Assembly: GCA_049297675.1 (NCBI GenBank)
Contig: JBAQUS010000011.1
Location: forward strand, 459 to 64,458
Reading direction: 5' to 3'
Origin: Minisyncoccia bacterium
GTDB taxonomy: Bacteria; Patescibacteriota; Minisyncoccia; Phycocordibacterales; DATDWN01
Length of the DNA stretch: 64,000 bases
Below, in pieces: positions 14,103-58,418 of this stretch. Within the stretch, counting starts at the first letter, position 1; the number at the start of each line of letters is the position of its first letter. The notes beneath the pieces are model-generated. The model was not told the DNA's origin and did not search any database. It saw only the letters and a program-made list of their open reading frames with translations. The translations under genes were made by a program, and so were the position numbers.

Positions 14103-14111
14103 TTTAATAAT

Positions 14112-41337: not shown

Positions 41338-41393
41338 AAAGTTTATAAAGTCTTATACAAACACTTTACAAACTTTTACTTTTCAACTATACA
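41338..41393 (+). promoter_or_regulatory. rpmH promoter carrying the conserved AAAGTTTATAAAGT-N4-TACAAA module
   Basis: Same motif and spacing as upstream of genes at 51158 and 51690 (minus strand). Confidence 0.4.
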
Positions 41394-41531
41394 ATGTCTA
41401 AAACATACAAACCAAAAAAAAGAAAAAGAGCAAAAAGTCATGGCTTTTTAGTTAGGAGTAAGTCAAAGACTGGAAGAAATACTATTTTAAGAAGACGAAG
41501 AAAAGGTAGAGCTAAACTGAGCACAGTCTAG
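41394..41531 (+). CDS. rpmH: 50S ribosomal protein L34
   Basis: MSKTYKPKKRKRAKSHGFLVRSKSKTGRNTILRRRRKGRAKLSTV. 45 aa, below the track's length cutoff. Confidence 0.85.
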   Translation: MSKTYKPKKRKRAKSHGFLVRSKSKTGRNTILRRRRKGRAKLSTV

Positions 41532-41611
41532 TGAGTTGTAAAGTTTGTAAAGTGAATCCCAACAATAACTTTGTAAACTCGATAACTTTACAAACTTTAT
41601 TAGCTACAATC

Positions 41612-42684: not shown

Positions 42685-42693
42685 AAGTACTGT

Positions 42694-42829
42694 GAATTAC
42701 GAAACTCGTCGAAAACACATGTTTTCTGGCGTATCTCGCAGGCCTGCAGAGGCCGAGAGTTAAGGAAAATTTTCAGCAGAAAATTATTCCGGCGACAGAA
42801 AATATGTGTTGAGCAAGAGTTTTGTAATT
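42694..42829. repeat. MITE-like palindromic repeat, copy B (inverted relative to copy A)
   Basis: gaattacgaaactcgtcgaaaacacatgttttctggcg .. cagaaaatatgtgttgagcaagagttttgtaattt. Core is near-identical to the rc of copy A. Confidence 0.6.
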
Positions 42830-42836
42830 TATCTTA

Positions 42837-44123
42837 CTATATACCTAAACCAGGTGTGGTTGTGCTGGTGGCAGTAGTTTTTGTTAGGTCCAAACTCCAG
42901 AGACTGTTGTCTATTTTGTTTATGAATATGAGGTATTGTTCGTTTTCCGAGAGAATAGGTTTTATAACGTCAATTTTCTCACCAGATTCGCTCTCCAAGT
43001 CCGATACAATCTCTGCATTACCATTTATGGTATCGAACGTATAAATCTCATCGTTAAAAGACACTAGACCCTTGTACCAAGATGTTAAACTATTGGCAAA
43101 TATAGCAGTTTTTGGTGTTGCGCAGAATAGTTTGTCTCTATTTTTCTTACTCCACACACACTTTTCAGGAAACGTCTCAGGAGAAATGACTTCAACAGTC
43201 TTGTCACTGTTTTTTAGAACTTTCATTGAAACACCAACATCTAATTCTGTATAAAGAATCTTTGATAGGTCACTGTTTACTATGGCCGTCAATCCTTTTA
43301 CATCACCGAGGATTTTTTTGACGGATCCGTTATCTGTGTCAACCAAATAAAGAAAACCAGAAATTCCTTGATGAGGTTTGGTGGTCAATGCTACGGTTCT
43401 ATTATTTACAAACTGGGAGTTAAATTCCTTTATATCAGAATTCCAAACCTGTTTTTTTCTTGTTCCTTCAAAGTTTGAAGTAAATCCGGACGAAGAGTAA
43501 ATATCTTCTACTAAATAAAAGACATTTTCTCCAAAAACAGAAACATCAGAAACATTTTCAGGGAAAATTACTCCAGAAGTGGTATTTATTGTCGTCGTGC
43601 TAATCGATTTTATATTGAGGGAGTATGTGCTTATTGTTTGGTTGTCATCTTCAAGGTATCTGGCCATAAGATAATTAGGGTTACTTCCCCATATGGCTTC
43701 ATAAGAGAGTGGGATAGTGGTGTTTGAGATTCTGGCCACCTTAGGCGAGAAAGTTTCGACCTCATAAATGTGTCCTGTGGCTTTTTCGATGTATCTGATG
43801 ACGGTGCCGACTCTGTTGTCGCTTGTGCCGGCCCCAGAGACTGGTTCACTTGAGATTTTTCGCAGTCTTTTTGTAAAAGTTTCAGGTTGTGGCAATTGCT
43901 CTGTGGTCTCACTTACTTGACCGTTTTCACTTCCATCCCCACTACCCGTTGTACCAGACTGATCCTCTTCACCTCCTCTGTCTCCAAAAGGGAAAAAGGA
44001 AAAACCAGTTCTTGTCCCGTCTTCACCCACAGTGTTATTTCTTGTCAAAAAGTAGTAGCCCAAAAGAGCCAGAAGAAAGAGGGATAAAACAACTATAAGT
44101 ATTATAAAAATTTTTCTAGACAT
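42837..44123 (-). CDS. Secreted/membrane-anchored hypothetical protein
   Basis: N-terminal TM (MSRKIFIILIVVLSLFLLALLGYYFL) followed by a Gly/Ser/Thr-rich linker. Confidence 0.5.
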   Translation of the reverse strand: MSRKIFIILIVVLSLFLLALLGYYFLTRNNTVGEDGTRTGFSFFPFGDRGGEEDQSGTTGSGDGSENGQVSETTEQLPQPETFTKRLRKISSEPVSGAGTSDNRVGTVIRYIEKATGHIYEVETFSPKVARISNTTIPLSYEAIWGSNPNYLMARYLEDDNQTISTYSLNIKSISTTTINTTSGVIFPENVSDVSVFGENVFYLVEDIYSSSGFTSNFEGTRKKQVWNSDIKEFNSQFVNNRTVALTTKPHQGISGFLYLVDTDNGSVKKILGDVKGLTAIVNSDLSKILYTELDVGVSMKVLKNSDKTVEVISPETFPEKCVWSKKNRDKLFCATPKTAIFANSLTSWYKGLVSFNDEIYTFDTINGNAEIVSDLESESGEKIDVIKPILSENEQYLIFINKIDNSLWSLDLTKTTATSTTTPGLGI

Positions 44124-44124: not shown

Positions 44125-45039
44125 TTACCAAGTTACATGCCAATGTTCACCGCTTGAGTGAGTATAAGCCCCTGCTCTCTCGAATGTCGCAGTTGCGCCT
44201 GTAGGTAATCTGACAGTAAGTTTGTTGGTAGGATTACTAGCCTTAGGTTCAATAGTAGCAAGATATGATCTAAATGCTGCTGTGTTACCCAAATCAACTA
44301 TATTAGCTCCAGGACCGTGGTCCAAATGACCACCTTCTGCTCCACCTGTTATGGTAATCAAACAGTCTTGCTTTATTTTATTTAAGCATGTCTGACTTAT
44401 CGATTTAAGTGATGTAACCACATTTGGAGGCAATCCAATGACATTGGTACAACCTCGAGTTGATCCTGTATCACAAGGTCCAGCATTAACATAAACCCTA
44501 CCAGGTGAAGTGGCAAGTGCATCTCTTATGGTGTTATTTATTGCTACCTGCTCTGGGGTCAAAGAATATCCCGCTAAAGTCCCATCTGGATTGCGAGCTC
44601 CAGTGTATGTGCCTGCCGCTCCCACCACTACACCAGCCGGTGGAGTGGCAGTTGGTGGTCTTTTCATAACCAAATCAATTGCAAGTATACCTGGGTCAAT
44701 TGTGTAAAGAATAGCATAAGCGCCAATAACCAGAAGTAAACCTACCACTGCGTTTGTTAAGTATTCTCTACCTTGCTGTTTTTGGGTTATAGCGTCAGCT
44801 GTAGCGTACATTATTCCTCCAAAGGTAATCATGACAAAGGCCAAGACAGCAGAGGCCCCAATAGCTAGTCTGAACGCTGCAGGAATATAAGTAGTAAGAG
44901 TAGTTTGTTGTGCACCGATTCCTGGTAATGATGGGACTAAGAGTTGGTAAGGCTGTGCTTGAGCGTGAGTCAATGTGGCTAAAGAGAACAAAAATATTGA
45001 TAGAGCCAAAAATTTTGTAAATTTGTTTTTCATATTCAT
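44125..45039 (-). CDS. Signal-peptide protein with VirB2/TrbC pilin-like hydrophobic core and a C-terminal extra domain; GC-rich
   Basis: Signal peptide, then two hydrophobic helices (AAFRLAIGASAVLAFVMITFGGIMYATADAI .. AVVGLLLVIGAYAILY). Assignment by architecture only. Confidence 0.35.
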   Translation of the reverse strand: MNMKNKFTKFLALSIFLFSLATLTHAQAQPYQLLVPSLPGIGAQQTTLTTYIPAAFRLAIGASAVLAFVMITFGGIMYATADAITQKQQGREYLTNAVVGLLLVIGAYAILYTIDPGILAIDLVMKRPPTATPPAGVVVGAAGTYTGARNPDGTLAGYSLTPEQVAINNTIRDALATSPGRVYVNAGPCDTGSTRGCTNVIGLPPNVVTSLKSISQTCLNKIKQDCLITITGGAEGGHLDHGPGANIVDLGNTAAFRSYLATIEPKASNPTNKLTVRLPTGATATFERAGAYTHSSGEHWHVTW

Positions 45040-45042
45040 ATA

Positions 45043-46062
45043 TTAAAATATTGGATTAGATAAACTTATTTCTCCAAATTTCAGGTTAAATTTGGTTGAG
45101 GCGTACTGGAGAATTTTTTCAGTATTTTCGATTGAGAGAGAAATGTTTGCTGTGCCGGACACCCCCTCTTTTTGTCTAAATGTTTGAATGTTGCCAGAAC
45201 TTTCTGCTACCTGCACCCCGTTTATTGCCCATTTGTATAAAAGGTCAGATGAGAAACTATTTAACACTCCAAAATAATAAGGCATACCTATAACTACAAT
45301 TTCTTTAGAGTCCTTAAGTTCCACTTCTCCTGCTAAGGCTCTTTGAAGTTCTATCCCATAAAGTGGATTTTTTCTATAAAAAATAAGCTCAGGTTCCACA
45401 GGTGGCAGGTCAAATCTGGCGAAAGCTCGGAGACCCGGATTGTCAGGCGAGGTCACCTCCACGGTTATATTTTGCGATCTTGAGATGAGAGGGCCGTTAA
45501 ATGTGTAAATATTTTTTCCATAACCTGATGCCTCGCTTACAACATTCTCAGATTTTGACCACTTATATACCAGACTTTTAGGATTTATCTCAACTCCGTT
45601 TTCATTTGTCATATGCGGAAAAGCTATGATGCTTAATCTGTTTTCGTGGCTGAACATTCTCTTACCTTTGTAAAATGGTGGCACAAAACTTTCCGATTGC
45701 CAGATAAGGTCAACATCGGATGGTTTTATATTAATCTTTTTCCTCTCTACGCTTCCATTATTGAAAACAACAATTATTTCAAGAGTTGTTGTTTGACTGA
45801 TACCACCTACGGTAAAACTGAAGTTTTTTATTCCCTTGCCCGAGGCTTCTGTTCTGCCGTTTACTTGCCAAGTGATTGTGGAGGAATCAAGATCTTTTAT
45901 ATAGTTTGTTAAAGTTACTCTAACCGTTTGATAAGCTCTAGGGCTTAAAGGAATCACCTCCATATTAACGCTATTGTTAATCTGTTCCAATCCTTGCGAA
46001 TGAGCCTTATAAAAAGGCAGGAGAGATAATATTAGAGCTAGAAGAAAAAAATACTTCTTCAT
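45043..46062 (-). CDS. Secreted beta-rich hypothetical protein
   Basis: Signal peptide MKKYFFLLALILSLLPFYKAHS. Confidence 0.5.
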   Translation of the reverse strand: MKKYFFLLALILSLLPFYKAHSQGLEQINNSVNMEVIPLSPRAYQTVRVTLTNYIKDLDSSTITWQVNGRTEASGKGIKNFSFTVGGISQTTTLEIIVVFNNGSVERKKINIKPSDVDLIWQSESFVPPFYKGKRMFSHENRLSIIAFPHMTNENGVEINPKSLVYKWSKSENVVSEASGYGKNIYTFNGPLISRSQNITVEVTSPDNPGLRAFARFDLPPVEPELIFYRKNPLYGIELQRALAGEVELKDSKEIVVIGMPYYFGVLNSFSSDLLYKWAINGVQVAESSGNIQTFRQKEGVSGTANISLSIENTEKILQYASTKFNLKFGEISLSNPIF

Positions 46063-46124
46063 TGGAATAATTATATCACAAAATTACGATAGAGAAATTA
46101 ACTGTACACATTTTCATCAATTTA

Positions 46125-46568
46125 TTAGGCATCGTCAACTAGAGGCACATTTGGAGTATAATTTCTATCTTTATTCATATTCCTAATTTTGGTTCCGGCT
46201 ACTACTGCTCCTTTTGCAAGTGTTGGATGTTTCTGTGCCAACTCTTTTATTTTAGTTGTGCCTATTAAATAAACCACAACTCCTGTCCATGCTGGTAAAA
46301 GATTCAAATAAGGAACCATTTCAACCAATCCTCCTGCAACCATTGAACCAAGTCTTTTAGGAGTTATCATTTTTATCCCGTTAAACCAAAACCACACCAA
46401 AAAAGTTAGAAAAATCCCTATACTAAGAAGATCTGCCAGAAAATTTCCAGCAATAGGTATCCAGCCAATTAGAGCCTGAAGAGCATCAAAAAATAGCGCT
46501 GTGCCAATCATCAAAATAGCTGTGCTGTCCTTTATCTGAGTCTCTTTCATCTGTTCATTATACCACAA
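46125..46568 (-). CDS. Small polytopic membrane protein
   Basis: 3-4 predicted TM helices. 147 aa. Confidence 0.5.
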   Translation of the reverse strand: MWYNEQMKETQIKDSTAILMIGTALFFDALQALIGWIPIAGNFLADLLSIGIFLTFLVWFWFNGIKMITPKRLGSMVAGGLVEMVPYLNLLPAWTGVVVYLIGTTKIKELAQKHPTLAKGAVVAGTKIRNMNKDRNYTPNVPLVDDA

Positions 46569-46576
46569 TTTCTTTA

Positions 46577-46709
46577 AATTACGAAACTCGTCGCAGGTGT
46601 AGCTTTTTTAGAGACTCTCGGAGTCGGGTAGACGAGAGTGAGCGCAAAATTCAGCAGAATTTTGACGCGTGCTCTAAAAAAGCTATATCAAGAAAGAGTT
46701 TTGTAATTT
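46577..46709. repeat. MITE-like repeat, diverged copy D
   Basis: Ends aaattacgaaactcgtcg .. aagagttttgtaattt. Palindromic interior (tgtagcttttttagag .. ctctaaaaaagctat). Shares the aaaattcagcagaattttg core segment. Confidence 0.5.
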
Positions 46710-46714
46710 AACTT

Positions 46715-49700
46715 CTACCCATTCCTCTCCAGCTCCTCCTTTTTACTTTTGATTGCCAATATTTCCGATGGGTCGGATGTAATAATCTGCTCCTCTGTGT
46801 ATGAAGCGATTATTTTTATTGCCACATGCTTTAGTCCAGCGAAGAATATTCCCTCACCGACGTCTGACTCTAAAAGTAGATATTTTTCCTCATCTGTAAG
46901 GTTAAAGGTTTGCTGGAGTTTGTCCATAGAGGTTGGAGATTGCTTCAAAAGGACTTGTATGGAAGAGTTTGTAATAATCGGTACTCCATAAGGGGATTTC
47001 ATAAAATCGTCTACGTCTTGGGTTATTGTCGCCAGTCCCAAATAATATTTTCTGCCTCTTTTAGCAAGGGAGAGTAGAAAAGATGCTGTGTCCTCGGACT
47101 TCATCATCCACCAAGCCTCGTCTATAACTAGAAGTCTTTTCTTCAGCTTCTTTCTTATCATGTTCCAGATATAGTGCATGACAATATACATGGCGATGGG
47201 TTTCAATTCATCTTCCATGTCGCGAACGGAGAAGACAATGAACTTTTTGTTTATATCCACATTTGACGGCTTGTTTATAAAGCCAGCCCAGGTTCCGCGG
47301 GTGTATTTTGTAAGTCTTTGAGCAAGGGAATCCCCCCCTTCCATACCAGAGAGAACCAGCTCAAAGTCCGACATAAGTGGTGGTTCTATATTTTGAAAAT
47401 CCGAGTCTGGAGTAATGTCCTTTAGAGCATAGGTTTCTGTTATAGCTCTATCTATAATAGCGTCTTCCTCGGGAGTTATTCCCCCCATCATGATTCTGAA
47501 AAGCCCGACTAGGTTTATAATGTTTGACCTAAGTACGTTAGCAAAAGATTCTCCCTCTCCCGGCTGAGGAAGTTCAAAAGGATTTATGTGGTGTTCAGAG
47601 TTTAGAGAAATATTAAAGTATCTGCCTCCAACGGCTTCTGATAAATATTCGTATTCTTTTTCTGGGTCTATGACTATTACATCAACATCAAACATCAGAG
47701 TTCTAAGTATCTCTAGTTTAGTCATAAAGGAGTTATGAACAAACATACCTGAAGTTCCAGCAAGGAAAATTTCATTATCTACAGTTAAATCATAAACATA
47801 TTTTTCTGCATTGTTATTACGTTTTTCTATTGAGATAATAGGATCCCACATAAGGTCTGACTGAGCAAGTCTTCTAAGCATTTTTAGAATTCCTTCTATA
47901 TGAGGTAAATTAGCATATATGTTTCTATATGTTTCGCTTATAAATTTTGCCGAATCCAAAACCATTTCATAAGATGTTCTGTCGGGTAATTTTTTTCGAA
48001 AAGCACTACCCAATCCAGGATTTTGATCTATAATAGAACTGTCAAAATCTAAAAAGCTCTGGTGTATGCGTTTTGTAGCAACTAAAATTTCATTTCCGGT
48101 TTCTGTACCCAAGACTACTCGAGAAAGAATAATAATATTAGCAAGTCCAGGTTTTCCTTTACGTTTTTTCATCCAAGCCCAGCTTGATCCGAGCTCACTG
48201 TAGAGTCTATTATTAAACTCCTTGTTCGATTCACCTAAGTTTATGAGAGTTTCTATTTCAGGTAGTTCTGACATTAGTTTCATCGTCTTTTCTATTTTTT
48301 TAAAACGATTTATCCTTTCTTCCACACTTACCACAAGTTTGTAAAGCTCTTCTCTTCCTGGATTATACACCCCATGAGAGAGAGCAGAAAGATTTGGTAT
48401 GTTGTGCAGTTGACTATCAAAATAGACACGAAGTTCATTAATAAGCGACGCGACTGAAGGGATAATATCAACATTTGTATTATTTTGTTTGTCACATATT
48501 GACTTGAGGGCTTCCTGTTTTTGTGGTGTTGCAAAGCCTATCTTATCTCTAAAGATGGTGAGATTTTCTTGGCCAGATATACTAATTATCCAAAACAATC
48601 TTTTGCCACCAGTCTTTTTATATGTGATGGTTTTTTTGTGTAAACGAGCAACAATGCCAAAACCAAGCAACAGATAAGAAATTTCCGAAAGCAAATTTTT
48701 TGATTTTGATGTTGCAGTTACTCGTGAAGCATCAACACCCCCGTCTCCTTCAAAGTAAGCTCGAATATAAGCAGATATAACTTCCTTAGGAGAACCAAAG
48801 AGTATCTCCGGAACATGTTTTTTTGCTGATCTTCCACTGGCACCGATTGCATATATTAAGGCTACGAAAGGTCGATCGCTGATCACTATATCTTTTGGTG
48901 CTGGATAACAGAGTACACCTAAATTTTTACAAGCTTTTTGCACCACTGATCTTACTTTCTCATCAATATTACTTACTTGTATAGCATTTTGGTTTATGCA
49001 ACCTTCAGCACCAATATAACCCAGAAGTGTTCCGAAATCTTCATTAACTCTAAAAGTTGCGGGCAAACTTCCTCTGCCAGAACCAGACATGATTTTAAGA
49101 GAAGCAGATTCTCTTTCGGTTAGTTTTTTATCATATTTTTTCATCAGGGCATTAAAGAATTCTAGAGGAATTCGACGCCCCTTTTTATATAGAGGCAAAT
49201 AATGGTCATATCTAGGATTTATTGTTTCTCTTGAATATGCCTTGTGAACACTATTAACAATATTAGCTCCACCCACTACGTACATACGTTTTTGGTTTTT
49301 TAGAAGGTCAAAAAGATTAAGTTTTATCTGTGTATTTTGCGAAAAAGAAACTTCACGAGGTAATGGAATATATTCTCCATTTTTAACTTCAGTACTTTTT
49401 AAAACAACAACCTTTCCATCTCTTAAAACAAGCATATTATGGTCACCAGTTGTTGTTATCTCACGACCACTTTGAGTTTGAAAACGGTAAAAAGTATTCG
49501 GAGCTTGTTTGCGTGCCGCAATAGTGACTTTACTCCACGAACCTTTAAGTTCACTATCAAAACTCCAAACTTCAAATCCTGGATCAATAGTCCCCTCCAT
49601 TTCTTTATCAATTTTGACCTTACCCTTCTCCTTAATTGTTTTTTCTATCAAACTGCCAATTTGTTTAAATTCAATCTGGCCATTTTTTCTAATAATGACA

Positions 49701-50515
49701 GGTTCGATACCTCTCACACTTTTACCGGCACCTGATTTAGCAAAGGTAATTGAGTTGTAGTTTTCTAGAGAAAATCTATCAAAGAGAATTAATGATGAGT
49801 TGTGTCTGTTTATTCCATAAAGAATTCCCTTATCAGATGTTAGGTCAAAAGAGATGAAAGGAAATAGACTGGATAGAGGTGAAGAATTTAGTTTACTATA
49901 AACCTTCAAATCATCTGTGCCGAGTGGAATGGTTGTTTTGAATCCCTGTTCTTGTTGGAAAAGAGCTGGTTTTACGTAAACTAATTTTGCTTCAAGAATT
50001 GATTTTATTTCTGACTCAACCTTATCTAGTTCACCATCGGAGTCGGCATAGATGGTCAAATATAGTCCGACATCAAAAAGTCTCTCCTGGGCTTGCTGGA
50101 GCTGATCTCTCAAGTTTTCGAGGTCTTGATAGGCTGTGTCTAGCATCGGGTTTCTAACCAAACCTTTGGCTTCTCTCGTGTTTATCTGACTCTGGACTTC
50201 AGCAACTTTTTTTTGGAAAGTACGGAGGACTTGGGAGGTTTCGATGGGTTGAATAAATATACCAACATCAAAGACTTTGTCTAGATTTATTATGGGAGCG
50301 AACCAACTTTCTGAAAGATATCTTGGGTAAGAAATAACAAAGAAAGATCTAACAACTTTCTCGCCCAAGTTAATTCCCTTTGGGGTGACCTTAAGAGCAC
50401 TAGGGGCAATGACATCTTTCAGTTCCAAAGAGCCAGAATCATATATCTGGTGCGGTAAAATGGTCGCAACATGTGTCTCTTCTTTTTTTCCCTTCAAAAA
50501 GTCAAATATTCCCAT
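46715..50515 (-). CDS. VirB4/TraC-like conjugative (T4SS) ATPase, C-terminal two-thirds, interrupted by an intein
   Basis: Extein: ..ITFAKSGAGK|[intein]|SFMTKLEIL.. reconstitutes P-loop SGAGKSF. Walker B LLVIDEAWWMM. 265-aa N-extein + 663-aa intein + 338-aa C-extein. Confidence 0.75.
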   Translation of the reverse strand: MGIFDFLKGKKEETHVATILPHQIYDSGSLELKDVIAPSALKVTPKGINLGEKVVRSFFVISYPRYLSESWFAPIINLDKVFDVGIFIQPIETSQVLRTFQKKVAEVQSQINTREAKGLVRNPMLDTAYQDLENLRDQLQQAQERLFDVGLYLTIYADSDGELDKVESEIKSILEAKLVYVKPALFQQEQGFKTTIPLGTDDLKVYSKLNSSPLSSLFPFISFDLTSDKGILYGINRHNSSLILFDRFSLENYNSITFAKSGAGKSVRGIEPVIIRKNGQIEFKQIGSLIEKTIKEKGKVKIDKEMEGTIDPGFEVWSFDSELKGSWSKVTIAARKQAPNTFYRFQTQSGREITTTGDHNMLVLRDGKVVVLKSTEVKNGEYIPLPREVSFSQNTQIKLNLFDLLKNQKRMYVVGGANIVNSVHKAYSRETINPRYDHYLPLYKKGRRIPLEFFNALMKKYDKKLTERESASLKIMSGSGRGSLPATFRVNEDFGTLLGYIGAEGCINQNAIQVSNIDEKVRSVVQKACKNLGVLCYPAPKDIVISDRPFVALIYAIGASGRSAKKHVPEILFGSPKEVISAYIRAYFEGDGGVDASRVTATSKSKNLLSEISYLLLGFGIVARLHKKTITYKKTGGKRLFWIISISGQENLTIFRDKIGFATPQKQEALKSICDKQNNTNVDIIPSVASLINELRVYFDSQLHNIPNLSALSHGVYNPGREELYKLVVSVEERINRFKKIEKTMKLMSELPEIETLINLGESNKEFNNRLYSELGSSWAWMKKRKGKPGLANIIILSRVVLGTETGNEILVATKRIHQSFLDFDSSIIDQNPGLGSAFRKKLPDRTSYEMVLDSAKFISETYRNIYANLPHIEGILKMLRRLAQSDLMWDPIISIEKRNNNAEKYVYDLTVDNEIFLAGTSGMFVHNSFMTKLEILRTLMFDVDVIVIDPEKEYEYLSEAVGGRYFNISLNSEHHINPFELPQPGEGESFANVLRSNIINLVGLFRIMMGGITPEEDAIIDRAITETYALKDITPDSDFQNIEPPLMSDFELVLSGMEGGDSLAQRLTKYTRGTWAGFINKPSNVDINKKFIVFSVRDMEDELKPIAMYIVMHYIWNMIRKKLKKRLLVIDEAWWMMKSEDTASFLLSLAKRGRKYYLGLATITQDVDDFMKSPYGVPIITNSSIQVLLKQSPTSMDKLQQTFNLTDEEKYLLLESDVGEGIFFAGLKHVAIKIIASYTEEQIITSDPSEILAIKSKKEELERNG
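47732..49720 (-). mobile_element. Intein (663 aa) with LAGLIDADG homing endonuclease, inserted in the Walker A P-loop
   Basis: Starts with Ser (SVRGIEPVII). Block B TTTGDHNMLV. LAGLIDADG-like LLGYIGAEGC and YIRAYFEGDGGV. Ends ..MFVHN followed by the +1 Ser. Confidence 0.7.
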
Positions 50516-50519
50516 AGTT

Positions 50520-51158
50520 TTAATTCATTTTTATTGGTTTTTCCGTGTCGCCTGGATTAAATATTTTATAAAACAGCTCTATGACCTCTTCCTCACCTAG
50601 CCTGACCACTCTTATTCCGCATCGGGATAGTCCTTGTTCTACCACCGAAACTCTCTGTTCAAGCTGTGTTCGATTTTCTTCAAAACTTACTTTCTTCTCC
50701 TCAGCCACCTGACTAGCAGATCTTCTTCCCAAAAGTCTTCCAGCAACCCCGCCTTTAATATCTATTATAGCAGGATCATAAGGCACAACCACGAAGAAAC
50801 TTTTTGTCATGATGTTTGTCGATTCGGTAAATTTTTTAACAAACTCTATATATTCCCTTGTTTGAATTTTCATTAAATCGTTAACTTGTTCCTTGTACCT
50901 GTCCTCCAAGAGGGCCAAGTACGGTCTTATATCCAGCCTTCTGGATTGAATAGAAATTTGAATTGCAAAATCCAACGAGTTTAAAAAATCTTGAAATTGC
51001 AAAATTATTGCGTTTCTTTCATCATCAGATTTTAGACTGAAGTTTAAAGAGGAAGTTAAAACAACAGCGCGCAAAGTACCATCTTTAAGCACTACTATTC
51101 CGTCACGGACTTCTCTTATTGGAACAAATTCTTGAGTTGCATTTGAAGCGACAACCAT
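50520..51158 (-). CDS. Probable N-terminal domain of the split VirB4-like ATPase (212 aa)
   Basis: Pattern IREVRDGIVVLKDGTLRAVVLTSSLNFSL resembles the VirB4 N-terminus. 212 + 265 aa places Walker A at about residue 477, as in intact VirB4. The stop is 4 nt before the ATG of the downstream ORF. Confidence 0.4.
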   Translation of the reverse strand: MVVASNATQEFVPIREVRDGIVVLKDGTLRAVVLTSSLNFSLKSDDERNAIILQFQDFLNSLDFAIQISIQSRRLDIRPYLALLEDRYKEQVNDLMKIQTREYIEFVKKFTESTNIMTKSFFVVVPYDPAIIDIKGGVAGRLLGRRSASQVAEEKKVSFEENRTQLEQRVSVVEQGLSRCGIRVVRLGEEEVIELFYKIFNPGDTEKPIKMN

Positions 51159-51255
51159 GAAAGTTAGTTATAAAGTAATAAAGTTCATTAAATTTTCAAC
51201 TGTATAATGTATTGTACTATACTTTATAAACTTTATAAACTTTCAACTCCTCGAA
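51159..51255 (-). promoter_or_regulatory. Promoter: tandem AAAGTTTATAAAGT motif, N4, TACAAT, then conserved leader GAACTTTATTACTTTATAACTAACTTT before the ATG
   Basis: Read on the minus strand. Nearly identical module at 51691..51772. Confidence 0.45.
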
Positions 51256-51690
51256 CTATCTTGTTGTCTTTCCGTCCTCCCCTGTCAGCGGATTTAAATT
51301 TTCATTTATGTCCAATGTCCACGAAAGTTCCTTTAGTTTGCTTTCTGAAAGTTTTGGAACAAAAACTTGTCTAGCTGAAGTTTCCGGAGTTTCTGACTCT
51401 ACTATTTTTTTGTCTTCCCTTTTCCAGATATAAAGATTTTGTTTTGTATAGTAGAGAAATGCTGATTCCAAAAAATCTATGAATGGTTTGTTGTTTATTT
51501 TATAAAATGCAAGAGCAACGGATAGCCCAGCAACTGCTCCTATAGGAAATATGGCTATATAAAAAGGCAGATATCTATAAAGTATAAAAGACATAAAAGC
51601 TCCACCGGCAATATAAACAAACTGTTTTATAGTGAATGGCCCAATTATTTTGTCTTCTATTTCTATAAATTGAGGAACTTGGTATTTCAT
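51256..51690 (-). CDS. Small 2-TM membrane protein, VirB3-like by size, topology and position upstream of VirB4
   Basis: 144 aa. Two hydrophobic helices (IAGGAFMSFILYRYLPFYIAIFPIGAVAGLSVALAFY). Confidence 0.4.
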   Translation of the reverse strand: MKYQVPQFIEIEDKIIGPFTIKQFVYIAGGAFMSFILYRYLPFYIAIFPIGAVAGLSVALAFYKINNKPFIDFLESAFLYYTKQNLYIWKREDKKIVESETPETSARQVFVPKLSESKLKELSWTLDINENLNPLTGEDGKTTR

Positions 51691-51772
51691 AAATTAGTTA
51701 TAAAGTTCATAAAGTGAATTCACTAAATTATACCCCACTTTATAAACTTTATAAACTTTTAACTTTACAAAC
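51691..51772 (-). promoter_or_regulatory. Promoter: AAAGTTTATAAAGTTTATAAAGT-GGGG-TATAAT plus conserved leader
   Basis: rc of 51727..51732 is TATAAT. The tandem motif occupies the -35 region (TTTATA with a 17-nt spacer). Confidence 0.5.
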
Positions 51773-53626
51773 TCATTCTGTTGGTTCTCTATATGGATCG
51801 ACAACATATTCGTGGGTAATAGGTGTACTTTGAGTGTTTTCCACTCTGGCGTAAGTTGAATTATTTAATTTATCATTAGTCACTGAGTTACCTTGAGGTG
51901 CTTTATACTGACCAATATTATCTTGATAGTCCGGTCTCTGATACTGCGGGGTATTTTGTTGTTCATTCTGTTGTTTTTGAGCATATTGAACAGAAAAATC
52001 ATTTCTTGGATTAACCTGAACGTTTTGAGTTTCTTTTAGAGGATCGTTGAACGTGGCGTTGCCAAATTTCGGAACGAAAGCCGGTCTTTCAGCCTGAAAG
52101 ATTCTTTGTTGTGGCTCATTTTCCTTTAAAGCAGGTTCTCTTTCAATTTTTTGACCTTGTTCTGGCCAATAGTTTTTATCCAAATTTCTTGTATTAACTT
52201 GGTAGGGCTGGTTTATATTTTGAATATTTTGGGGAGCGTTCCATCCAGGAATATTTGCTCTGCTGTTTGTCGAATTTTCTCTACCGAAAACTATTTTTGG
52301 AGCAGAACTAGAATTTAACGGTTTGCTGAAATTACTCTCGTCGGTAAAGGCGCTAGGTTTATTCAGTGCTCCAAATGGTCTGCTTCCTGTATTTTGTCCT
52401 AGATTTTGCCCGATCGGTTTATTGAGAGCTTCTTCGGAAAGTGTAGAATTAGTTCTTTCCTGGGGTCTTTGAGGTGCTTGTGAAAAGCTAGTTTGATTCA
52501 GCACTTCATTTACAGCTTGTTGTGCAGGCCTGTATTTGACTTCAAATCCCGGCTTTTTACTTGGCACTACAGTAGTTTTGTTTTCGGGTTTGTATTCATG
52601 TGAGATGTTAGTGTCCACTCCAGGTAGATTAGGAGGTGATTCCCTGACTGCCTCTCTAGCGTTTGCTATGGGATATTGCAGTCCTTTTTTCTCGGCAGTT
52701 TCTTTTTCTATGTTTGACTGAATTCTTTTATAAAGTCCTTCGGCGTTTTCGGTTATCCTATTTTTTAGGCTAAAAGCGATTTTTTTGGCCACATAACTAT
52801 CCACACCGAGGTATTTCGAAATTAAAGCTTCCTGATTTTGATCATCTTGAATATCTAGGATAATGTCTCCCATAAGAGAGATGAGACTTTTTGTTTGTTC
52901 CTCGTTTAGTCGATTTACTCTGGCGATATCGTCCATTTCAAAAGAAAGTTCACTAGAGACAAATATAACCCTAAGTATCTCGGGGAGGTTTTCGTATAGG
53001 TCCCAATACTCTCCCGGTGATATTTTCATCACTCTGTTGTATCTGCCAGCAAAAGATTTATCGTGGGTTTTTTTTGCTTCGACTTTCGGTTCCGTTCTAA
53101 GAGGAACTCTTACGGTTGCTTCAACCGATGGTCTTGTCTCTGTTACTGGGACGTACATTGGAGCGGGAGAATATCTCGGCACGGAAATTGTTTGCTCTGT
53201 ATGTGCTGGTGGAGGAGTTACTTGCCTCGTAGGATTTTGTGCTGAATTTTCGGGAGATTTGTAAACATTAGAAACTGGTCTGGGCGTCTCTTTTTTTTGG
53301 GCTCTACTTTCTATAAATTTTAGAGCATAATCGAAGACTCTTTTGTCTAGATCTTCAAAAATCTGCTCGGATAAAATTGGAGAGAAGCCGTGAGTTTCTT
53401 TCAAATTTGATAAAAGCTGGTTTTGATCGTCCTGACCTATAATGACAAAAAGGACATCATCTATAAGGTTTTCCGTTTGTTCAGGAGTTAGTCCATACTT
53501 TTGAGAGACCTCTCTCACTCTATTTTCCCAAACTCCTTCGGACAGTAAATCAGAAACTTCATTTGAAAGAGAAGCCATTATTTGATCTGTGTCATTTTTG
53601 ATTTGATTTTGGTTTACAGGATCCAT
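51773..53626 (-). CDS. Gln/Asn/Pro-rich low-complexity protein (617 aa) within the T4SS-like cluster
   Basis: Long ORF with an ordered N-terminal domain, then Q/N/P-rich repeats (QNTPQYQRPDYQDN..). Confidence 0.5.
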   Translation of the reverse strand: MDPVNQNQIKNDTDQIMASLSNEVSDLLSEGVWENRVREVSQKYGLTPEQTENLIDDVLFVIIGQDDQNQLLSNLKETHGFSPILSEQIFEDLDKRVFDYALKFIESRAQKKETPRPVSNVYKSPENSAQNPTRQVTPPPAHTEQTISVPRYSPAPMYVPVTETRPSVEATVRVPLRTEPKVEAKKTHDKSFAGRYNRVMKISPGEYWDLYENLPEILRVIFVSSELSFEMDDIARVNRLNEEQTKSLISLMGDIILDIQDDQNQEALISKYLGVDSYVAKKIAFSLKNRITENAEGLYKRIQSNIEKETAEKKGLQYPIANAREAVRESPPNLPGVDTNISHEYKPENKTTVVPSKKPGFEVKYRPAQQAVNEVLNQTSFSQAPQRPQERTNSTLSEEALNKPIGQNLGQNTGSRPFGALNKPSAFTDESNFSKPLNSSSAPKIVFGRENSTNSRANIPGWNAPQNIQNINQPYQVNTRNLDKNYWPEQGQKIEREPALKENEPQQRIFQAERPAFVPKFGNATFNDPLKETQNVQVNPRNDFSVQYAQKQQNEQQNTPQYQRPDYQDNIGQYKAPQGNSVTNDKLNNSTYARVENTQSTPITHEYVVDPYREPTE

Positions 53627-53638
53627 ATTCTAGTATTG

Positions 53639-56020
53639 TTAAGTCGTTGTTCCACCTCCAGTGTTGTCTTGGGTTGGAGTTGGTTCAGATGCTGTCTCAG
53701 GTACAGGTGCTTGGGTGGTTGTTTCAGTTTCCACATCTTTGGCAAAGTCCGGGTTCTCCTTTCTTCTCTGTTTCAATATATCAGCTAATTGCTGGTCTGC
53801 GGTTTTTCCTTTGGCCGCATTCCTAACCTCTATGGCCAATCGTTTTCTATACTGTGTCGGTTTTGTTTCTCTTCCAGTGACTGTTGAAACAGCCCCGCGA
53901 GCTATTCTCTGGTACAGAGGTCCCCTCTCTACTCTTTCAGCCTTCAACCCTACTCTTTGACTGTATTCACTGACAACAGATTTGCCAATATCGATATCTG
54001 TGTCTTTCAAAACAATTTTACCTCCTTTTGTTTCTGTTCCACCACCTAAAGCTACCAGTCGCTCTTTTTCTTTTGAAATCCACCTATTTTCTTTTAGGGC
54101 TTTCTTCTCTTCATCAATCTCCATAATTTTCTGTCTTTTTTCTCTTACTGCCTCACTCTTTCTAAATAACTCCTCTTCTTTTTCTCGAGCATCCCTCTCA
54201 AGTTTTTCTGCACTTGCTATATATCTGGAACGGGTATTTTGGTAAGTTGGATCAACTTCTTTATCGTAAATTTCTCTTTCTGCCTCAGCTCTAAGTTTTT
54301 CGTTTGGAGCACTGTTTTTCTTGGCTACAAGCTCATCCATTTCTCTGGTGGCTTGAGCTCTCTCGGCCAAGGCTTTTTCTTTCTTTATCTTGATCTCAGC
54401 CTCCATCGTCACTTTTTCTGTATCGTGTTCTACTACATCTTTTCTTATTCTATCTTCATCAGCTTTTTCTCTCGAGTTCAGATATGTGTCGGAATTATAA
54501 TAAGCCTTTCTTTCTTCAGCTTTTCTATCCTCCTCAATTTTGAATCTACTACCAAGTGCAGTATTCACATTTAGTTTTGCTTTTGCCTCTTCTTTGGCAA
54601 CCTTTGTTGGTTCTAGCGCTTCAGCTTTCTTTTTCTCATCCTTTAGCTTCTGCTCCCTTATAGCTCTAAAATTACTCTCTTTTTCATTCACTTTTCCAAA
54701 ACCAGTTTCTTGTCCCAAGACTTGACCTATGGCAGTTTTACCAGCTCTTGTTGCTCTAGCGTCAAAAGTGCTAGTGGATGCTCTGTTTGCGGCCGCTAGT
54801 TGAAGTCTGGCTCTTACACTACCTTCAGCCGCTCGCCTCTTCAAATCCTCATCACCTGCCATCCTCTCACCGTATCTTCCGATAGTGGTTCTACCTATTC
54901 TTGCCGCACCGCCAAGAAGCGCTCCACCTGCAAATCCAGTTGCTGCCGATGTGAATTTCCCAATCTGACTAGCACCCTGCGTGGCGAATTGTTTGGAAAT
55001 AACGATGGATGCGATGGTTAACCCAATAACCAAGGCAAAATTAACAATAACACTAGCCGCTCCTTGTGCCGCTATACCATCTGTCGTTTTTGCTAAGTTA
55101 TCATAGCCAAGACTTGTATTTCCTAGAAATCCTTGATCTCCCATTATTGTCAGAACCACCCAAGTCATTATCATATAAACCGGGGGCCAGATAATTTGTC
55201 CCCAAAATGATTCCCACCATTTGTCAGCGTGTTTTTTCATACCTTTCCACGCTAAGCCCATGTAAGCAATTGGCGAAAGGGCCAAGAGAGCTAAAAGAAT
55301 AATATATCTTACAATAAACATTACACTTACAGCTAGAAATACGAATATCACTACCAGAAATAAAATTGACATGCCTACGTATGCGAATGCTTGTCCTGTA
55401 CCTGTAACTGTCGCTAAACCTTCAGGTGAGTAAAAACTCTGCAAATTTATACGATTCATGTATGCATTTGATAATCCGTCTGTCAGTAATATGGCACCTG
55501 GATTTGGTACAACAATATTGTTGTATATTCCTATCGTTACAACATTTGAAGCATCTATAATTACTTTTGTAAAAAATAGACTGAAGTTTATTAGTATTGA
55601 TGCTAGGAATATTCCAAAAACGAATTTTCTTACACTCGAGACATCCTCTATGCTTAAAATAACAAGTATGGCCTGATAAACCAACATGAATATAAAGCCT
55701 ATATTCATTAAATCCTTTATAACTTTCCACGCTGTGTTTATACCAGTTAAATCTCTTATACTATTTGCCATCTTAAAGATAGTTAGATCTATAACACTGT
55801 TAAGGATAAGGCCGGAAAGACCCATAAGCCAGGACATTAGTTTGGCAACGAACCAAAGTATATTAGTAATAATGTCCGTCATGAGACCTGAAAAGCCCCT
55901 TCCCAACACAACTTGGTCAAGGAATACGCCAGCATCAACAAAACCAGTCGGCAAAAGTACACCAACTATGAGTACCAATATTAGAATGTATTTTACCCCC
56001 CCCTTCATTAAATTGGTCAT
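53639..56020 (-). CDS. Polytopic membrane protein (VirB6/TrbL-like N-domain) with long Lys/Glu-rich coiled-coil C-terminal region
   Basis: About 7 TM helices in the first 330 aa. C-terminal charged coiled coil. VirB6 assignment is inference. Confidence 0.4.
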   Translation of the reverse strand: MTNLMKGGVKYILILVLIVGVLLPTGFVDAGVFLDQVVLGRGFSGLMTDIITNILWFVAKLMSWLMGLSGLILNSVIDLTIFKMANSIRDLTGINTAWKVIKDLMNIGFIFMLVYQAILVILSIEDVSSVRKFVFGIFLASILINFSLFFTKVIIDASNVVTIGIYNNIVVPNPGAILLTDGLSNAYMNRINLQSFYSPEGLATVTGTGQAFAYVGMSILFLVVIFVFLAVSVMFIVRYIILLALLALSPIAYMGLAWKGMKKHADKWWESFWGQIIWPPVYMIMTWVVLTIMGDQGFLGNTSLGYDNLAKTTDGIAAQGAASVIVNFALVIGLTIASIVISKQFATQGASQIGKFTSAATGFAGGALLGGAARIGRTTIGRYGERMAGDEDLKRRAAEGSVRARLQLAAANRASTSTFDARATRAGKTAIGQVLGQETGFGKVNEKESNFRAIREQKLKDEKKKAEALEPTKVAKEEAKAKLNVNTALGSRFKIEEDRKAEERKAYYNSDTYLNSREKADEDRIRKDVVEHDTEKVTMEAEIKIKKEKALAERAQATREMDELVAKKNSAPNEKLRAEAEREIYDKEVDPTYQNTRSRYIASAEKLERDAREKEEELFRKSEAVREKRQKIMEIDEEKKALKENRWISKEKERLVALGGGTETKGGKIVLKDTDIDIGKSVVSEYSQRVGLKAERVERGPLYQRIARGAVSTVTGRETKPTQYRKRLAIEVRNAAKGKTADQQLADILKQRRKENPDFAKDVETETTTQAPVPETASEPTPTQDNTGGGTTT

Positions 56021-56105
56021 GTGTTAGTTTTCTAAACCACAACTATCTTTTCCTGTACCTGTATGTATGTTCTAACATATTTTTCAATTTTTGTCTAGGT
56101 CCTAT

Positions 56106-57581
56106 CTAAGGCATCTGTACTAGAACTATATTTGATCTTTCGTTATTTCCACAGGGTGTACCGTCAGTTAGTCTTTGATTTCCGTTTGAAACCATAAATC
56201 CGACTTGTTCACCAGAGACCGGTCTGTGTCCAGTCATAGGAGCCCAACGGCTATCGTACCACCAGTTTGTTGGCAGTTGAATTTTTGGGTCGCCTGGACC
56301 ACCGTCATTTGTTCCTCCAGTCCAATTTCTAACAAAGGCCGAACCATACCATTGACCGTTTATATTAACGAAAGCCCACAAAGTATGTAAGATAGGTTCG
56401 TTGTTGCCGAACGGAGCACATTGAGGCCAAGCACCTTCCAAAGTGTAATCTACATTCCATGCACCACCCCAGTTTCCTCCAGTTATGTCAGTTGACTGAA
56501 CCATTGAGGTTATCTGTGGTGCTGGTCCAACAATAGTTACTGATGCAGGATCAAGTGTACCAACTATATTCCAAGCACCGCTTCCTGTTCCTGTACCACC
56601 TCCACCTCCCCCACCAGTGTTATCATCATCGCAAACATAACCTTGGTTACTAGGACAAGGAGGTGGTGGAGGAGCTCCAGGTGCTTCCCCTGGAGGTTGG
56701 TCTTGCTCAGCTTCTAGATCTTCAGTGTATTTGGTTTCTCCTGTTCCTGGATTGCTTGCACCGAATAGCCCTCTGCCTACGCCACCAACTATCCTTCCGG
56801 CAAGTTGGTTAAACAGTGCACCTATAATTTCATTTATCTCATCAGCCACTTCAAGTCTTCTTGTTCCTATACCGACGTTAAGGTGAAGAGATTCAGATAT
56901 GACACTTCCAGGCGTGTTGGTTTGTTTATCTACTTGACAGTCACCTGTACCAAAAGACGGATCAAGTTCCATGCCTTCAGGACATGTTTCCCAAGAGAGA
57001 AATCCTCCACTCCAGTTCAGTTGATCCTGAAACTTGTCTTGTTGATTACCTACATCTATTGCCAGCTGGTTTTGAGCACTGTTCAATGCTCCATACGGGT
57101 TGTTTTGATCATTTTGAGTCACTTCAAACCAACCTCCCCAACCACCTTGGCTGAAATCCCCCATGAACTGATCATAGTTGTTTGCTAGTACTCCTAGACT
57201 GCATACAAAGTTATCATCTTCACTGAGGTAGTTTTTAACTAAAGCCAAGCGCACCTGAGCTCTAAACGGACTACAAACAGCATTTAATTTTCCGCTTGAT
57301 AAAAGTCTTGATGCCGCCCTGTCAGCTTCGTTTAAAAAGAATTGTTGGGGATTTCTAACAAAGGCTGGAGATCCCTGAAATCCAGAGTTTATCCAGTTTA
57401 CCGTCTGTGCAGTTATTATTCTAAGCATGGAGTTAACCAGATTGTAAGCGATTACATCAAGTACGAATTCCTTGATAGATTGGGCTATGTCGACGTACTG
57501 GGCTTGAGCCTTTTGAGGGTATGAGGAGAGAAGTATTAAAACTATCAATGTTCCAGCGATAATTTTTTTAGTGTATATCAT
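56106..57581 (-). CDS. Secreted protein with Gly-rich and poly-Pro segments
   Basis: Signal peptide MIYTKKIIAGTLIVLILLSSYPQKAQA. PPPPPCPSNQGYVCDDDNTGGGGGGG. Confidence 0.5.
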   Translation of the reverse strand: MIYTKKIIAGTLIVLILLSSYPQKAQAQYVDIAQSIKEFVLDVIAYNLVNSMLRIITAQTVNWINSGFQGSPAFVRNPQQFFLNEADRAASRLLSSGKLNAVCSPFRAQVRLALVKNYLSEDDNFVCSLGVLANNYDQFMGDFSQGGWGGWFEVTQNDQNNPYGALNSAQNQLAIDVGNQQDKFQDQLNWSGGFLSWETCPEGMELDPSFGTGDCQVDKQTNTPGSVISESLHLNVGIGTRRLEVADEINEIIGALFNQLAGRIVGGVGRGLFGASNPGTGETKYTEDLEAEQDQPPGEAPGAPPPPPCPSNQGYVCDDDNTGGGGGGGTGTGSGAWNIVGTLDPASVTIVGPAPQITSMVQSTDITGGNWGGAWNVDYTLEGAWPQCAPFGNNEPILHTLWAFVNINGQWYGSAFVRNWTGGTNDGGPGDPKIQLPTNWWYDSRWAPMTGHRPVSGEQVGFMVSNGNQRLTDGTPCGNNERSNIVLVQMP

Positions 57582-57593: not shown

Positions 57594-58418
57594 TTAAAAT
57601 CTAATAAGAAATGAATTCATATTATTTAATGCTTTATAAAAAATTGTAACATGCTCATTATATTTAGAAACAGCCAACAATGCTCTGGTAGGGTCTTTTA
57701 TTGTGACCCTCAGGGCCTCAAGATCTGCAAGTAAGATACTATATGAATTGAGTAGGTTTAGATGCAAGATTGATGCCCCCTCCGGAACTTCCATTGCCAG
57801 AAAATCATCTATAAATCCCTTAGCAATGATAATAAGAGGATCCAATCTTTTTAGTGTGTTCTCATTTCCAGTTTTTACCGCCTCTTCTACAATTGTGACT
57901 GGGTTGTCCTTTATTTGAGAGGATCTGTTTTTTAGACTAGAATTAACCGACGTTTTATATTTTCTCATTGTTTCTGGGTCACTTTTACTGGTGATCTTAA
58001 GATTTTTTAGGACATAAACAGGGGCTGAAATGCTGGTATACAAAGAAGATTCGGATATACTCTCAACAATTTTGTTTACATCGTCCACTTCTACCTCCTT
58101 ACCTCCTTGTTTTGTTAACATATATTGTGAAAAAAAGTCTCTAGCAAGTTGAGCAGTCAGGGTTGTGTCGTCAAATTTATTAGGGTCTGTTTTTGTCAGA
58201 TTTGTTTCAACTTGGTCTTTCGGATCGATTTTTGTAAGCAATTTTTTCCACTCATCGTTACCATTTTCTGCAACATAAGGCCTTGATTCAACCGTTTCTA
58301 TTAATGAATCACCTGTCTCAGTGACTGAAAGATTAGTTTGGCTTCTAGAGAAAAGCCATGATGAAAAAATTAGTGAAAGGCATAAGATCATTAATGATAA
58401 TATTTTTCTACTTGGCAT
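57594..58418 (-). CDS. Secreted/lipoprotein-like hypothetical protein
   Basis: N-terminal hydrophobic segment MPSRKILSLMILCLSLIFSSWLFS. Confidence 0.5.
   Translation of the reverse strand: MPSRKILSLMILCLSLIFSSWLFSRSQTNLSVTETGDSLIETVESRPYVAENGNDEWKKLLTKIDPKDQVETNLTKTDPNKFDDTTLTAQLARDFFSQYMLTKQGGKEVEVDDVNKIVESISESSLYTSISAPVYVLKNLKITSKSDPETMRKYKTSVNSSLKNRSSQIKDNPVTIVEEAVKTGNENTLKRLDPLIIIAKGFIDDFLAMEVPEGASILHLNLLNSYSILLADLEALRVTIKDPTRALLAVSKYNEHVTIFYKALNNMNSFLIRF

Follow-up and report, generated by a model that had tools for sequence, protein, structure and literature searches.

A block of at least 15 co-oriented genes occupies the minus strand of the 64,000-nucleotide stretch of Minisyncoccia DNA analysed here (GCA_049297675.1, contig JBAQUS010000011.1; hereafter, the window). 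The block extends from position 42837 to beyond 63560 and includes, at positions 44125–57581, a cluster of genes related to those for type IV secretion systems (T4SSs). Within this cluster, nine open reading frames (ORFs) of at least 140 aa were identified, which encode proteins of 304, 339, 147, 1266, 212, 144, 617, 793, and 491 aa in the order of their positions (the 304-, 339-, 147-, 617-, and 491-aa proteins are referred to as pil304, s339, m147, q617, and s491, respectively). Six of the nine appear to be membrane-bound or secreted. The initial annotation of this region had counted thirteen co-oriented genes, mostly for secreted or membrane proteins; the common orientation on the minus strand and, for these six products, the predicted location stand, but the gene count does not. 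To the left of the block, yidC and rnpA are located on the plus strand and dnaA and dnaN on the minus strand, and direct reading of the sequence placed rpmH (41395–41532) ahead of rnpA and yidC. To the right of the cluster, there are genes for a 274-aa protein (s274) and a UbiA-family protein, followed by ksgA and uvrD. The G+C content of the cluster (0.36–0.41) is similar to that of its flanks, and an Rfam scan gave no match inside it. Proteins 100% identical to those encoded in the window are present on contig JBAQTD010000011.1 (179 kb; GCA_049296815.1), which is labelled Minisyncoccia bacterium.

Species-representative genomes were scanned with the portion of VirB4 downstream of its intein (the C-extein; see below), which identified at least 585 relatives, and the loci of the best 80 (L001–L080) were compared with the window. 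These 80 relatives are labelled Zambryskibacteria, Paceibacterota, Parcubacteria, or generically, including 'uncultured Candidatus Saccharibacteria', and the closest of them are 'Ca. Zambryskibacteria'. In nearly all of the 80 loci, the genes are arranged in the same order, i.e. uvrD-ksgA-(ubiA)-s274-s491-VirB6-(q617)-prgI-trsD-virB4-(m147)-s339-pilin-g428, followed by convergent yidC-rnpA and by dnaA-dnaN. The median identity in the same genomes is 77–84% for the VirB4 exteins versus 63% for DnaA, a comparison that is somewhat biased because the loci were selected by VirB4 similarity.

T4SS components of the cluster

The initial annotation had recognized a VirB2-like pilin-domain protein, a VirB3-like protein with two transmembrane segments, a VirB6-like polytopic protein with a long coiled-coil tail, and a VirB4-like ATPase. 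Annotation with hidden Markov models (HMMs) did not leave an isolated VirB4 gene; all four assignments hold on the evidence given below, and two features that had gone unmentioned were added, namely an intein in VirB4 and a separate ORF for the VirB4 N-terminal domain.

The virB4 gene (46715–50515, minus strand) encodes an intein-interrupted precursor of 1266 aa. Its product matched the NCBIfam model conju_CD1110 with 347.2 bits (cut-off, 325) and the Pfam families P-loop_TraG (1.4e-24) and AAA_10, and the second NCBIfam match was Mbov_0397, the VirB4 of an integrative conjugative element (ICE). From these HMM matches, it was assigned to the Gram-positive (MPF-FATA), CD1110-type VirB4 ATPases. 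The C-extein shows 81–93% identity across the 80 species. The adjacent trsD-like ORF (50520–51158, minus strand; 212 aa) corresponds to the VirB4 N-terminal domain as a protein of its own; it matched the N-terminal regions of VirB4_plasma (4e-11), of the CD1110 VirB4, and of TrsD/TraD (NF041427; 2e-6), and its precomputed Pfam label is TraC-like. A frameshift or assembly error was considered as the cause of the trsD/virB4 split and was ruled out, because in each of the 73 related loci in which this ORF was detected it is separate and 205–222 aa long, so that the split is ancestral. The third gene of this set (prgI; 51256–51690, minus strand) encodes a 144-aa VirB3-like protein, in which two hydrophobic, putatively membrane-spanning segments were read in the sequence and which matched Pfam PrgI (PF12666) with 32.9 bits, above the gathering threshold (GA) of 27. 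Orthologs of prgI were found in 72 of the 80 loci.

The VirB6-like protein (53639–56020, minus strand; 793 aa) consists of a polytopic helical domain (aa ~40–390) and a charged coiled-coil tail of ~350 aa. An AlphaFold2 (AF2) model of residues 1–430 was obtained with a mean predicted local distance difference test score (pLDDT) of 82.8 and a predicted template modelling score (pTM) of 0.74. When this model was compared with 350,542 PDB chains using Foldseek, the top seven matches were all TrwI/VirB6 of plasmid R388, with probabilities of 0.89–1.00. Among 59 orthologs, five matched Pfam TrbL/VirB6 and two matched TrbL_4. The family profile detected only coiled-coil noise among PDB sequences, the tail matched coiled-coil proteins only, and no match to TrbL of R751 was obtained by hhalign, for which R751 proteins served as the TrbL and TrbJ references. 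The predicted fold and the TrbL matches of the orthologs provide moderate support for the presence of a VirB6 homologue. The protein is similar to R388 TrwI in its polytopic helical membrane domain, the predicted fold of which is nearest to TrwI, and to the 'extended VirB6' proteins (PMC12857230) in its large hydrophilic C-proximal extension. It differs from TrwI in that the two share only 12–16% identity, the window's copy is without an HMM match, and the coiled-coil tail has no TrwI counterpart.

The pilin-domain protein, pil304 (44125–45039, minus strand), comprises a signal peptide, a VirB2-like two-helix pilin domain (aa 45–112), and a Cys-rich C-terminal domain (aa ~150–304). The VirB2-like assignment is borderline in the window's copy, which matched T4SS_pilin (PF18895) with 24.5 bits, just below the GA of 26.6, and clear in the positional orthologs, 54 of 58 of which matched T4SS_pilin and six of 58 TrbC/VirB2. 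The C-terminal domain (~155 aa) contains invariant residues (C40, C48, C69, C77, GG.E, H92, D100, and H150-W-H152), and this H/D/HWH Cys-rich domain is present in 21 of the 58 orthologs. In others, it is replaced by NlpC/P60 (2e-9), Peptidase_M15_4, CHAP, Amidase_5, or DPBB domains or by long coiled coils. Such domain swapping suggests a cell-wall-degrading role that may be anchored by, or displayed on, the VirB2-like module. The profile of the H/D/HWH domain matched no PDB sequence, hhalign detected no similarity to Escherichia coli MepK, and there was no HMM link between this domain and the orthologs presumed to carry M15_4. A word-indexed homologue search with the domain returned one match, which carries no annotation.

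The gene for s491 (56106–57581, minus strand) lies next to that for the VirB6-like protein and encodes a protein, secreted or anchored, whose N-terminal domain is helical and conserved and contains four cysteines and whose C-terminal domain is variable. Orthologs were found in 56 of the 80 loci. Among the 71 members of the family, 13 matched the TrbJ model NF010448 (best E-value, 5e-7), three matched TIGR02780, and two matched PRK13879, with no competing family; some members matched DUF4141. The TrbJ matches examined span only approximately the first 50 residues, i.e. the signal peptide and the start of the mature protein, and the hhalign match to R751 TrbJ (E = 0.0043; probability, 8%) likewise covers only 48 N-terminal columns. 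The family profile matched nothing among PDB sequences, and the AF2 model of the N-terminal domain was poor (pLDDT, 60.6; pTM, 0.34), with Foldseek returning meaningless matches only. These profile matches weakly suggest that s491 is possibly VirB5/TrbJ-like. The C-termini of s491 orthologs contain F5/8-type-C or Ig-like domains, as in an adhesin.

The VirB4 intein

The intein of VirB4 (47732–49720, minus strand) comprises 663 aa, from Ser266 to Asn928, and contains a LAGLIDADG homing endonuclease. It matched Intein_splicing with 75.4 bits (GA, 35.8) and LAGLIDADG_3 with 79 bits (GA, 22.5), and TIGR01445 and TIGR01443, the models for intein N- and C-terminal regions, also matched. Comparison with intein-free orthologs, in which the GxGKS(Y/F)xTKLEIL sequence is unbroken, showed that the intein splits the Walker A motif of VirB4 precisely at the K/S boundary (GAGK↓S...HN↓SFMTKLEIL); the nucleophile is Ser266, and the terminal HN928 is followed by Ser929 as the +1 residue. 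The LAGLIDADG-like motifs (LGYIGAEG and FEGDGG) and the TxxH block (TTGDH) appear to be intact. Among the 80 relatives, an intein was found only in L014, where it occupies the same site and is 66.5% identical, and closer relatives are without it. Judged from the sequences compared, this sporadic distribution is the pattern of a homing element. Since the intein interrupts the Walker A loop, the VirB4 precursor would be without an intact P-loop until the intein is spliced out, and VirB4 competence would need protein splicing.

Inteins have been found in VirB4 before, though rarely: five cases are on record from Firmicutes and Proteobacteria (Novikova et al. 2016, PMC4760082). Like the P-loop ATPase inteins described there, for which VirB4 is listed as a host, the present intein is of the class-1 type, carries a LAGLIDADG endonuclease, and is inserted in the nucleotide-binding loop. 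Unlike the VirB4 inteins of that study, it resides in a patescibacterial chromosomal VirB4 and is sporadic, being present in the window and in one of the 80 related species. Neither of two papers on patescibacterial T4SSs discussed below, one of them PMC12102498, uses the word 'intein' in its main text. The VirB4 P-loop intein may represent a natural case in which the activity of a T4SS depends on protein splicing.

Relationship to known systems and alternative interpretations

According to the survey of Quinonero-Coronel et al. 2025 (PMC12102498), Patescibacteria possess a VirB4 clade related to MPF-FATA, genes for TrsD, PrgI, VirB6, and VirB2-like pilins often adjoin virB4, relaxases are almost absent, and the T4SSs of Paceibacteria and Microgenomatia are located beside dnaA, dnaN, rnpA, rpmH, and ksgA. 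In Southlakia, the corresponding cluster was essential for epibiotic growth in transposon sequencing (Tn-seq) experiments, and pilins were noted, with coupling and relaxase proteins lacking (Wang et al. 2023, PMC10633639; reviewed in PMC12857230). The cluster in the window closely resembles these Patescibacteria-clade systems, including SEML1_0006–0019 of Southlakia epibionticum. It combines an MPF-FATA-like VirB4 with an adjacent TrsD-like protein, a PrgI-type VirB3, a VirB6-like protein, and a VirB2-like pilin domain, it is located beside dnaA, dnaN, rnpA, and ksgA in a patescibacterial genome, and there is no relaxase or type IV coupling protein (T4CP) gene nearby. Unlike Southlakia, which has a six-gene pilin array, the window has only one pilin-domain gene, the product of which carries an additional, fused domain, and unlike the published systems of this clade, its VirB4 carries an intein. 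Neither a TrbJ/VirB5-like neighbour of VirB6 nor a protein with a DPYREP tail (see below) was found in the sections of PMC12102498 that were consulted.

The cluster also shares features with the MPF-FATA T4SSs of Gram-positive bacteria (pGO1/pSK41 Trs, pCF10 Prg, and Clostridioides difficile CTn2), i.e. a CD1110-type VirB4, a PrgI-type VirB3, and the absence of outer-membrane core complex proteins, and, like the pGO1 subclass, it has a separate TrsD-like protein. Unlike these systems, the window contains no relaxase, T4CP, oriT, PrgB-type adhesin, or recognizable VirB8-like or VirB1-like gene. A VirB2-like pilin domain, which the Gram-positive systems lack (PMC12857230), is present, and unlike mobile MPF-FATA elements, the locus is chromosomally fixed. 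No domain of a relaxase, a T4CP (VirD4/TcpA), or an integrase was detected on any gene of the 64-kb window, in agreement with the initial annotation, to which no relaxase or coupling protein was visible, and no att-like boundary was found within the 64 kb.

Taken together, the locus is very probably a chromosomal T4SS of the Patescibacteria clade in a Paceibacteria/Minisyncoccia genome, i.e. a non-mobile system for host-contact exchange, the lineage of which derives from Gram-positive (MPF-FATA) conjugation machinery. The relaxase, coupling protein, and integrase are locally absent and the locus is fixed beside dnaA in many species, which argues that it is not a mobile conjugation apparatus. 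The earlier proposal of a non-conjugative T4SS used for cell–cell interaction is therefore supported, and such systems have already been published for Patescibacteria (PMC12102498, PMC10633639, and PMC12857230), in which they are thought to be central to the life of ultrasmall, biosynthetically poor bacteria on other cells. The type of system being known, this reading is correct but ordinary: the locus adds no new kind of system, being a clear-cut instance from Paceibacteria with a gene order kept almost universally among relatives, and what is unreported is local detail such as the VirB4 intein.

Established knowledge of T4SSs suggests how the products might assemble. PrgI/VirB3, the TrsD-like protein, and VirB4, once spliced, would form a membrane-associated energizing motor, and the extended VirB6-like protein would form the membrane platform or channel. 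The protein with the VirB2-like domain, possibly as a pilus, and the secreted s491, s339, and g428 proteins may constitute the extracellular part, in which the domain fused to the pilin module of pil304, or the wall hydrolases that take its place in orthologs, would open peptidoglycan and the variable C-termini of s491 would bind the target. The most likely function would be a contact-dependent exchange of macromolecules between these epibionts and the host cells that they depend on. The comparison of the 80 loci provides candidates for extracellular parts, i.e. a pilin protein with a swappable hydrolase, a TrbJ-like VirB6 neighbour with swappable binding domains, the Ig-like s339, a TolB-like propeller, and the DPYREP-tail protein. 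A more specific picture, in which the Paceibacteria T4SS is a host-piercing filament with an exchangeable wall-degrading domain on its VirB2-like subunit, a VirB5/TrbJ-like tip with exchangeable binding domains, and the DPYREP-tail protein as a dedicated substrate or adaptor, gated in the present genome by splicing of the VirB4 intein, is speculative and rather doubtful.

Several points weigh against a Patescibacteria-clade T4SS for host-contact exchange. No VirB8-like or VirB1-like protein was recognized in the cluster. The VirB6 fold matches have E-values of only 0.017–0.2 (the best, 0.017, at a probability of 1.0) and TM-scores of 0.36–0.46, and neither the window's own 793-aa VirB6-like protein nor its own s491 gave a significant match in the Pfam, NCBIfam, and PHROGs scans, as was also the case for the window's copies of s339, q617, s274, and m147. 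The C-terminal domain of pil304 has no Pfam or NCBIfam match, and its hypothetical reading as a LAS peptidase failed in both direct tests (PDB profile and MepK). Genes for a T4CP or a relaxase may be present in other parts of the genome; in the survey (PMC12102498), VirD4 homologues are located far from virB4 in many Patescibacteria. Moreover, the essentiality data were obtained in Saccharimonadia, a class other than Paceibacteria. With the window's own copies of the 793-, 491-, 339-, 428-, 274-, 147-, and 617-aa proteins all lacking a significant family match, it could be argued that only VirB4, TrsD, and PrgI are derived from a T4SS and that the surrounding membrane and secreted proteins are products of unrelated envelope genes, syntenic near the origin by chance, much as the flanking ubiA, ksgA, and uvrD are equally syntenic yet clearly unrelated. 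This is improbable, however, in view of the specificity of the VirB6 fold match (the top seven of 350,542 chains) and the TrbL matches of the orthologs, the recognition of the pilin domain in 54 of 58 orthologs, and the recurrent NCBIfam matches of the s491 family, which are confined to three models for TrbJ.

The family to which VirB4 belongs was defined on Gram-positive conjugative elements (CD1110, with the Mbov_0397 ICE VirB4 second), PrgI and TrsD are components of conjugation systems, and MITE-like repeats and the intein point to active mobile DNA in the region. These features would fit an ICE transfer module, intact or decayed, for the movement of DNA from cell to cell. The relaxase, T4CP, integrase, and att-like boundaries expected of such an element are, however, all missing from the 64 kb, and its position is not variable: in nearly all 80 species, the locus occupies a constant chromosomal site, with ksgA/uvrD on one side and yidC-rnpA-dnaA on the other. 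In addition, its G+C content (0.36–0.41) is flank-like, and the higher conservation of VirB4 relative to DnaA fits a housekeeping-like function under purifying selection rather than a mobile element. That the present locus is an ICE module or its remnant is highly improbable. An inward-directed machine, i.e. a ComB-like or Ced-like apparatus for the uptake of DNA, RNA, or other host macromolecules that feeds a cell unable to make nucleotides, is a more serious contender, although still an unlikely one. It would use the same components, no effector-like or T4CP gene is present in the cluster, uptake by a T4SS pilus has been speculated for Patescibacteria (PMC12857230), and in a 2026 preprint (10.64898/2026.06.21.733656), the VirB4 of Minisyncoccota is linked to the transfer of macromolecules and to the use of host RNA as food. 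On the other hand, the sequence gives no sign of the direction of transport, and the cluster contains no gene for a nuclease, for ComEC, or for a DNA-binding partner. In Southlakia, deletion of comEC left viability intact while the T4SS was still essential (PMC12857230), so that, in this organism, the essential role is something other than the uptake of transforming DNA.

Neighbouring genes, repeats, and other features of the window

The gene for g428 (42837–44123, minus strand) is the last gene of the block and is located outside the region delimited by the initial annotation. It encodes a membrane-anchored protein with an N-terminal hydrophobic segment read from the sequence, and a positional ortholog was found in 64 of the 80 loci. 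The ortholog profile gave a weak match to a TolB propeller in the PDB (E = 0.017), and a few orthologs matched PD40, DPPIV_N, or DUF5050; g428 is probably a TolB-like beta-propeller. The secreted s339 (45043–46062, minus strand) appears to consist of three repeated Ig-like modules (W..NG repeats) and has orthologs in 75 of the 80 loci, the alignment of which contains three repeats and the invariant residues W65, W168, and W278 and some of which gave weak matches to BiPBP_C, Ig_3, and PKD_3. The small multi-pass membrane protein m147 (46125–46568, minus strand) has a same-position ortholog in 31 of the 80 loci. It is not similar to the pilin profile, against which hhalign gave a probability of 3% and no match. 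The N-terminally anchored s274 (57594–58418, minus strand; 274 aa) is a conserved neighbour with a same-position ortholog in 32 of the 80 loci. Its profile matched PDB sequences in the signal region only, and its membership in the T4SS is uncertain.

The protein q617 (51773–53626, minus strand) is of low complexity and rich in Q, N, and P. It is devoid of hydrophobic segments, its N-terminal module is duplicated, and its extreme C-terminal tail, which is conserved, reads ...VDPYREPTE. The ORFs at this position upstream of prgI in L001–L080 vary greatly in the length of their products (~150–617 aa); a DPYRE(P) end is present in 50 of 63 loci, and the DPYREP(I/L) tail is nearly invariant. In six loci (L032, L033, L051, L054, L069, and L071), an extra ORF of ~120–130 aa is located between the DPYREP-tail gene and prgI, and its product has a conserved opening, e.g. 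KSFxDLxVW near the start. This opening may be reminiscent of the four-helix-bundle proteins of 23S rRNA intervening sequences.

Promoter-like modules are located upstream of trsD (51211–51257, minus strand; TTTATA-17-TACAAT) and prgI (51727–51773, minus strand; TTTATA-17-TATAAT, 10/12), each with a direct repeat (D5). The exact 22-mer AAGTTTATAAAGTTTATAAAGT, composed of two tandem 9-nt units, occurs twice (51221–51242 and 51737–51758; none expected) and overlaps the sigma-70-like sites upstream of both genes, which bears out the shared promoter module that the initial annotation had described inside the cluster. The leaders of prgI and trsD further share a segment of the ATGAACTTTAT..ACTTTATAACTAA type. 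An 11-mer core occurs 19 times versus 3.4 expected; the near-palindromic motif appears as GTTTATAAAGT and its GTTTGTAAAGT variants, and its copies are often arrayed in tandem, repeating every 9 nt. The GTTTATAAAGT-type motif is clustered at 41301–41595 (rpmH/rnpA-dnaA, likely the oriC neighbourhood), at 51221–51772 (the two T4SS promoters), and at 23721–23749 (before the gene at 23757), and may serve either as an operator or as an element of strong promoters. A DnaA box was considered in view of the clustering at rpmH-dnaA and is unlikely, because other species have different repeats at the same two promoters though DnaA is conserved. Promoter-like and terminator-like sites in the window as a whole are not more numerous than the shuffled expectation.

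In L013, L014, L025, L028, L038, L039, L064, and L005, the prgI and trsD promoters likewise share short tandem repeats, which are species-specific and differ between species (e.g. AATTAGAATAATTAGAA in L038), and in L005 and L039 the repeat words recur near dnaA. This suggests that the promoter repeats may represent a fast-evolving cis-element shared by the two promoters. If oriC is located in the rpmH–dnaA intergenic region (41242–41394), as the divergent genes suggest, the T4SS block together with its neighbours (42837–63560; at least 15 genes) would be transcribed toward the origin and would meet the rightward fork head-on. The related loci share this orientation. GC skew tracks the coding strand and is not decisive here.

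A non-coding palindromic element resembling miniature inverted-repeat transposable elements (MITEs) is present in three copies of ~150 nt, with terminal inverted arms of ~40 nt, and in one short copy. The full copy at 14106–14257 aligns with those at 42684–42835 and 46574–46714. The copy at 42684–42835, between the convergent yidC and g428, is 94% and 84% complementary to that at 14106–14257, and the copy at 46574–46714, between virB4 and m147, has 40-nt terminal arms that are 80% complementary. The short copy (19088–19146; ~60 nt) consists of the hairpin only. Two copies (B and D) had been described as flanking and punctuating the cluster; one is indeed located inside it (46574–46714), but the other (42684–42835) lies 1.3 kb outside its start. 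The element was absent from the 80 related loci, and it could equally be a structured intergenic repeat similar to repetitive extragenic palindromic (REP) sequences.

Elsewhere in the window, the only tRNA gene (9136–9211, minus strand; Rfam tRNA, 73.7 bits) was reported by ARAGORN as 'tRNA-Stop' with the anticodon TTA. A suppressor tRNA was rejected: canonical numbering, with one base at position 26 and five nucleotides in the variable loop, gives CTTTTAA as the anticodon loop, and the gene is therefore most likely one for tRNA-Lys(UUU). The region at 2574–7356 (minus strand) and its neighbours look like a restriction-modification or defence island, with genes for an 893-aa protein similar to ResIII helicases, an N6_N4 DNA methyltransferase of 698 aa, a small helix-turn-helix (HTH) protein, and a PHP/SMC_N-like protein. 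A gene for a PilB-like T2SSE ATPase of a type IV pilus or competence system (20505–22184, plus strand) is located 20 kb from the T4SS, beside ruvB, yebC, and ruvC. Past uvrD (63786–64000 and beyond; 64245–65264 of the contig), a gene on the strand opposite to the cluster encodes a LysM-LysM-Peptidase_M23 protein of 339 aa, which could be a wall hydrolase serving the T4SS.

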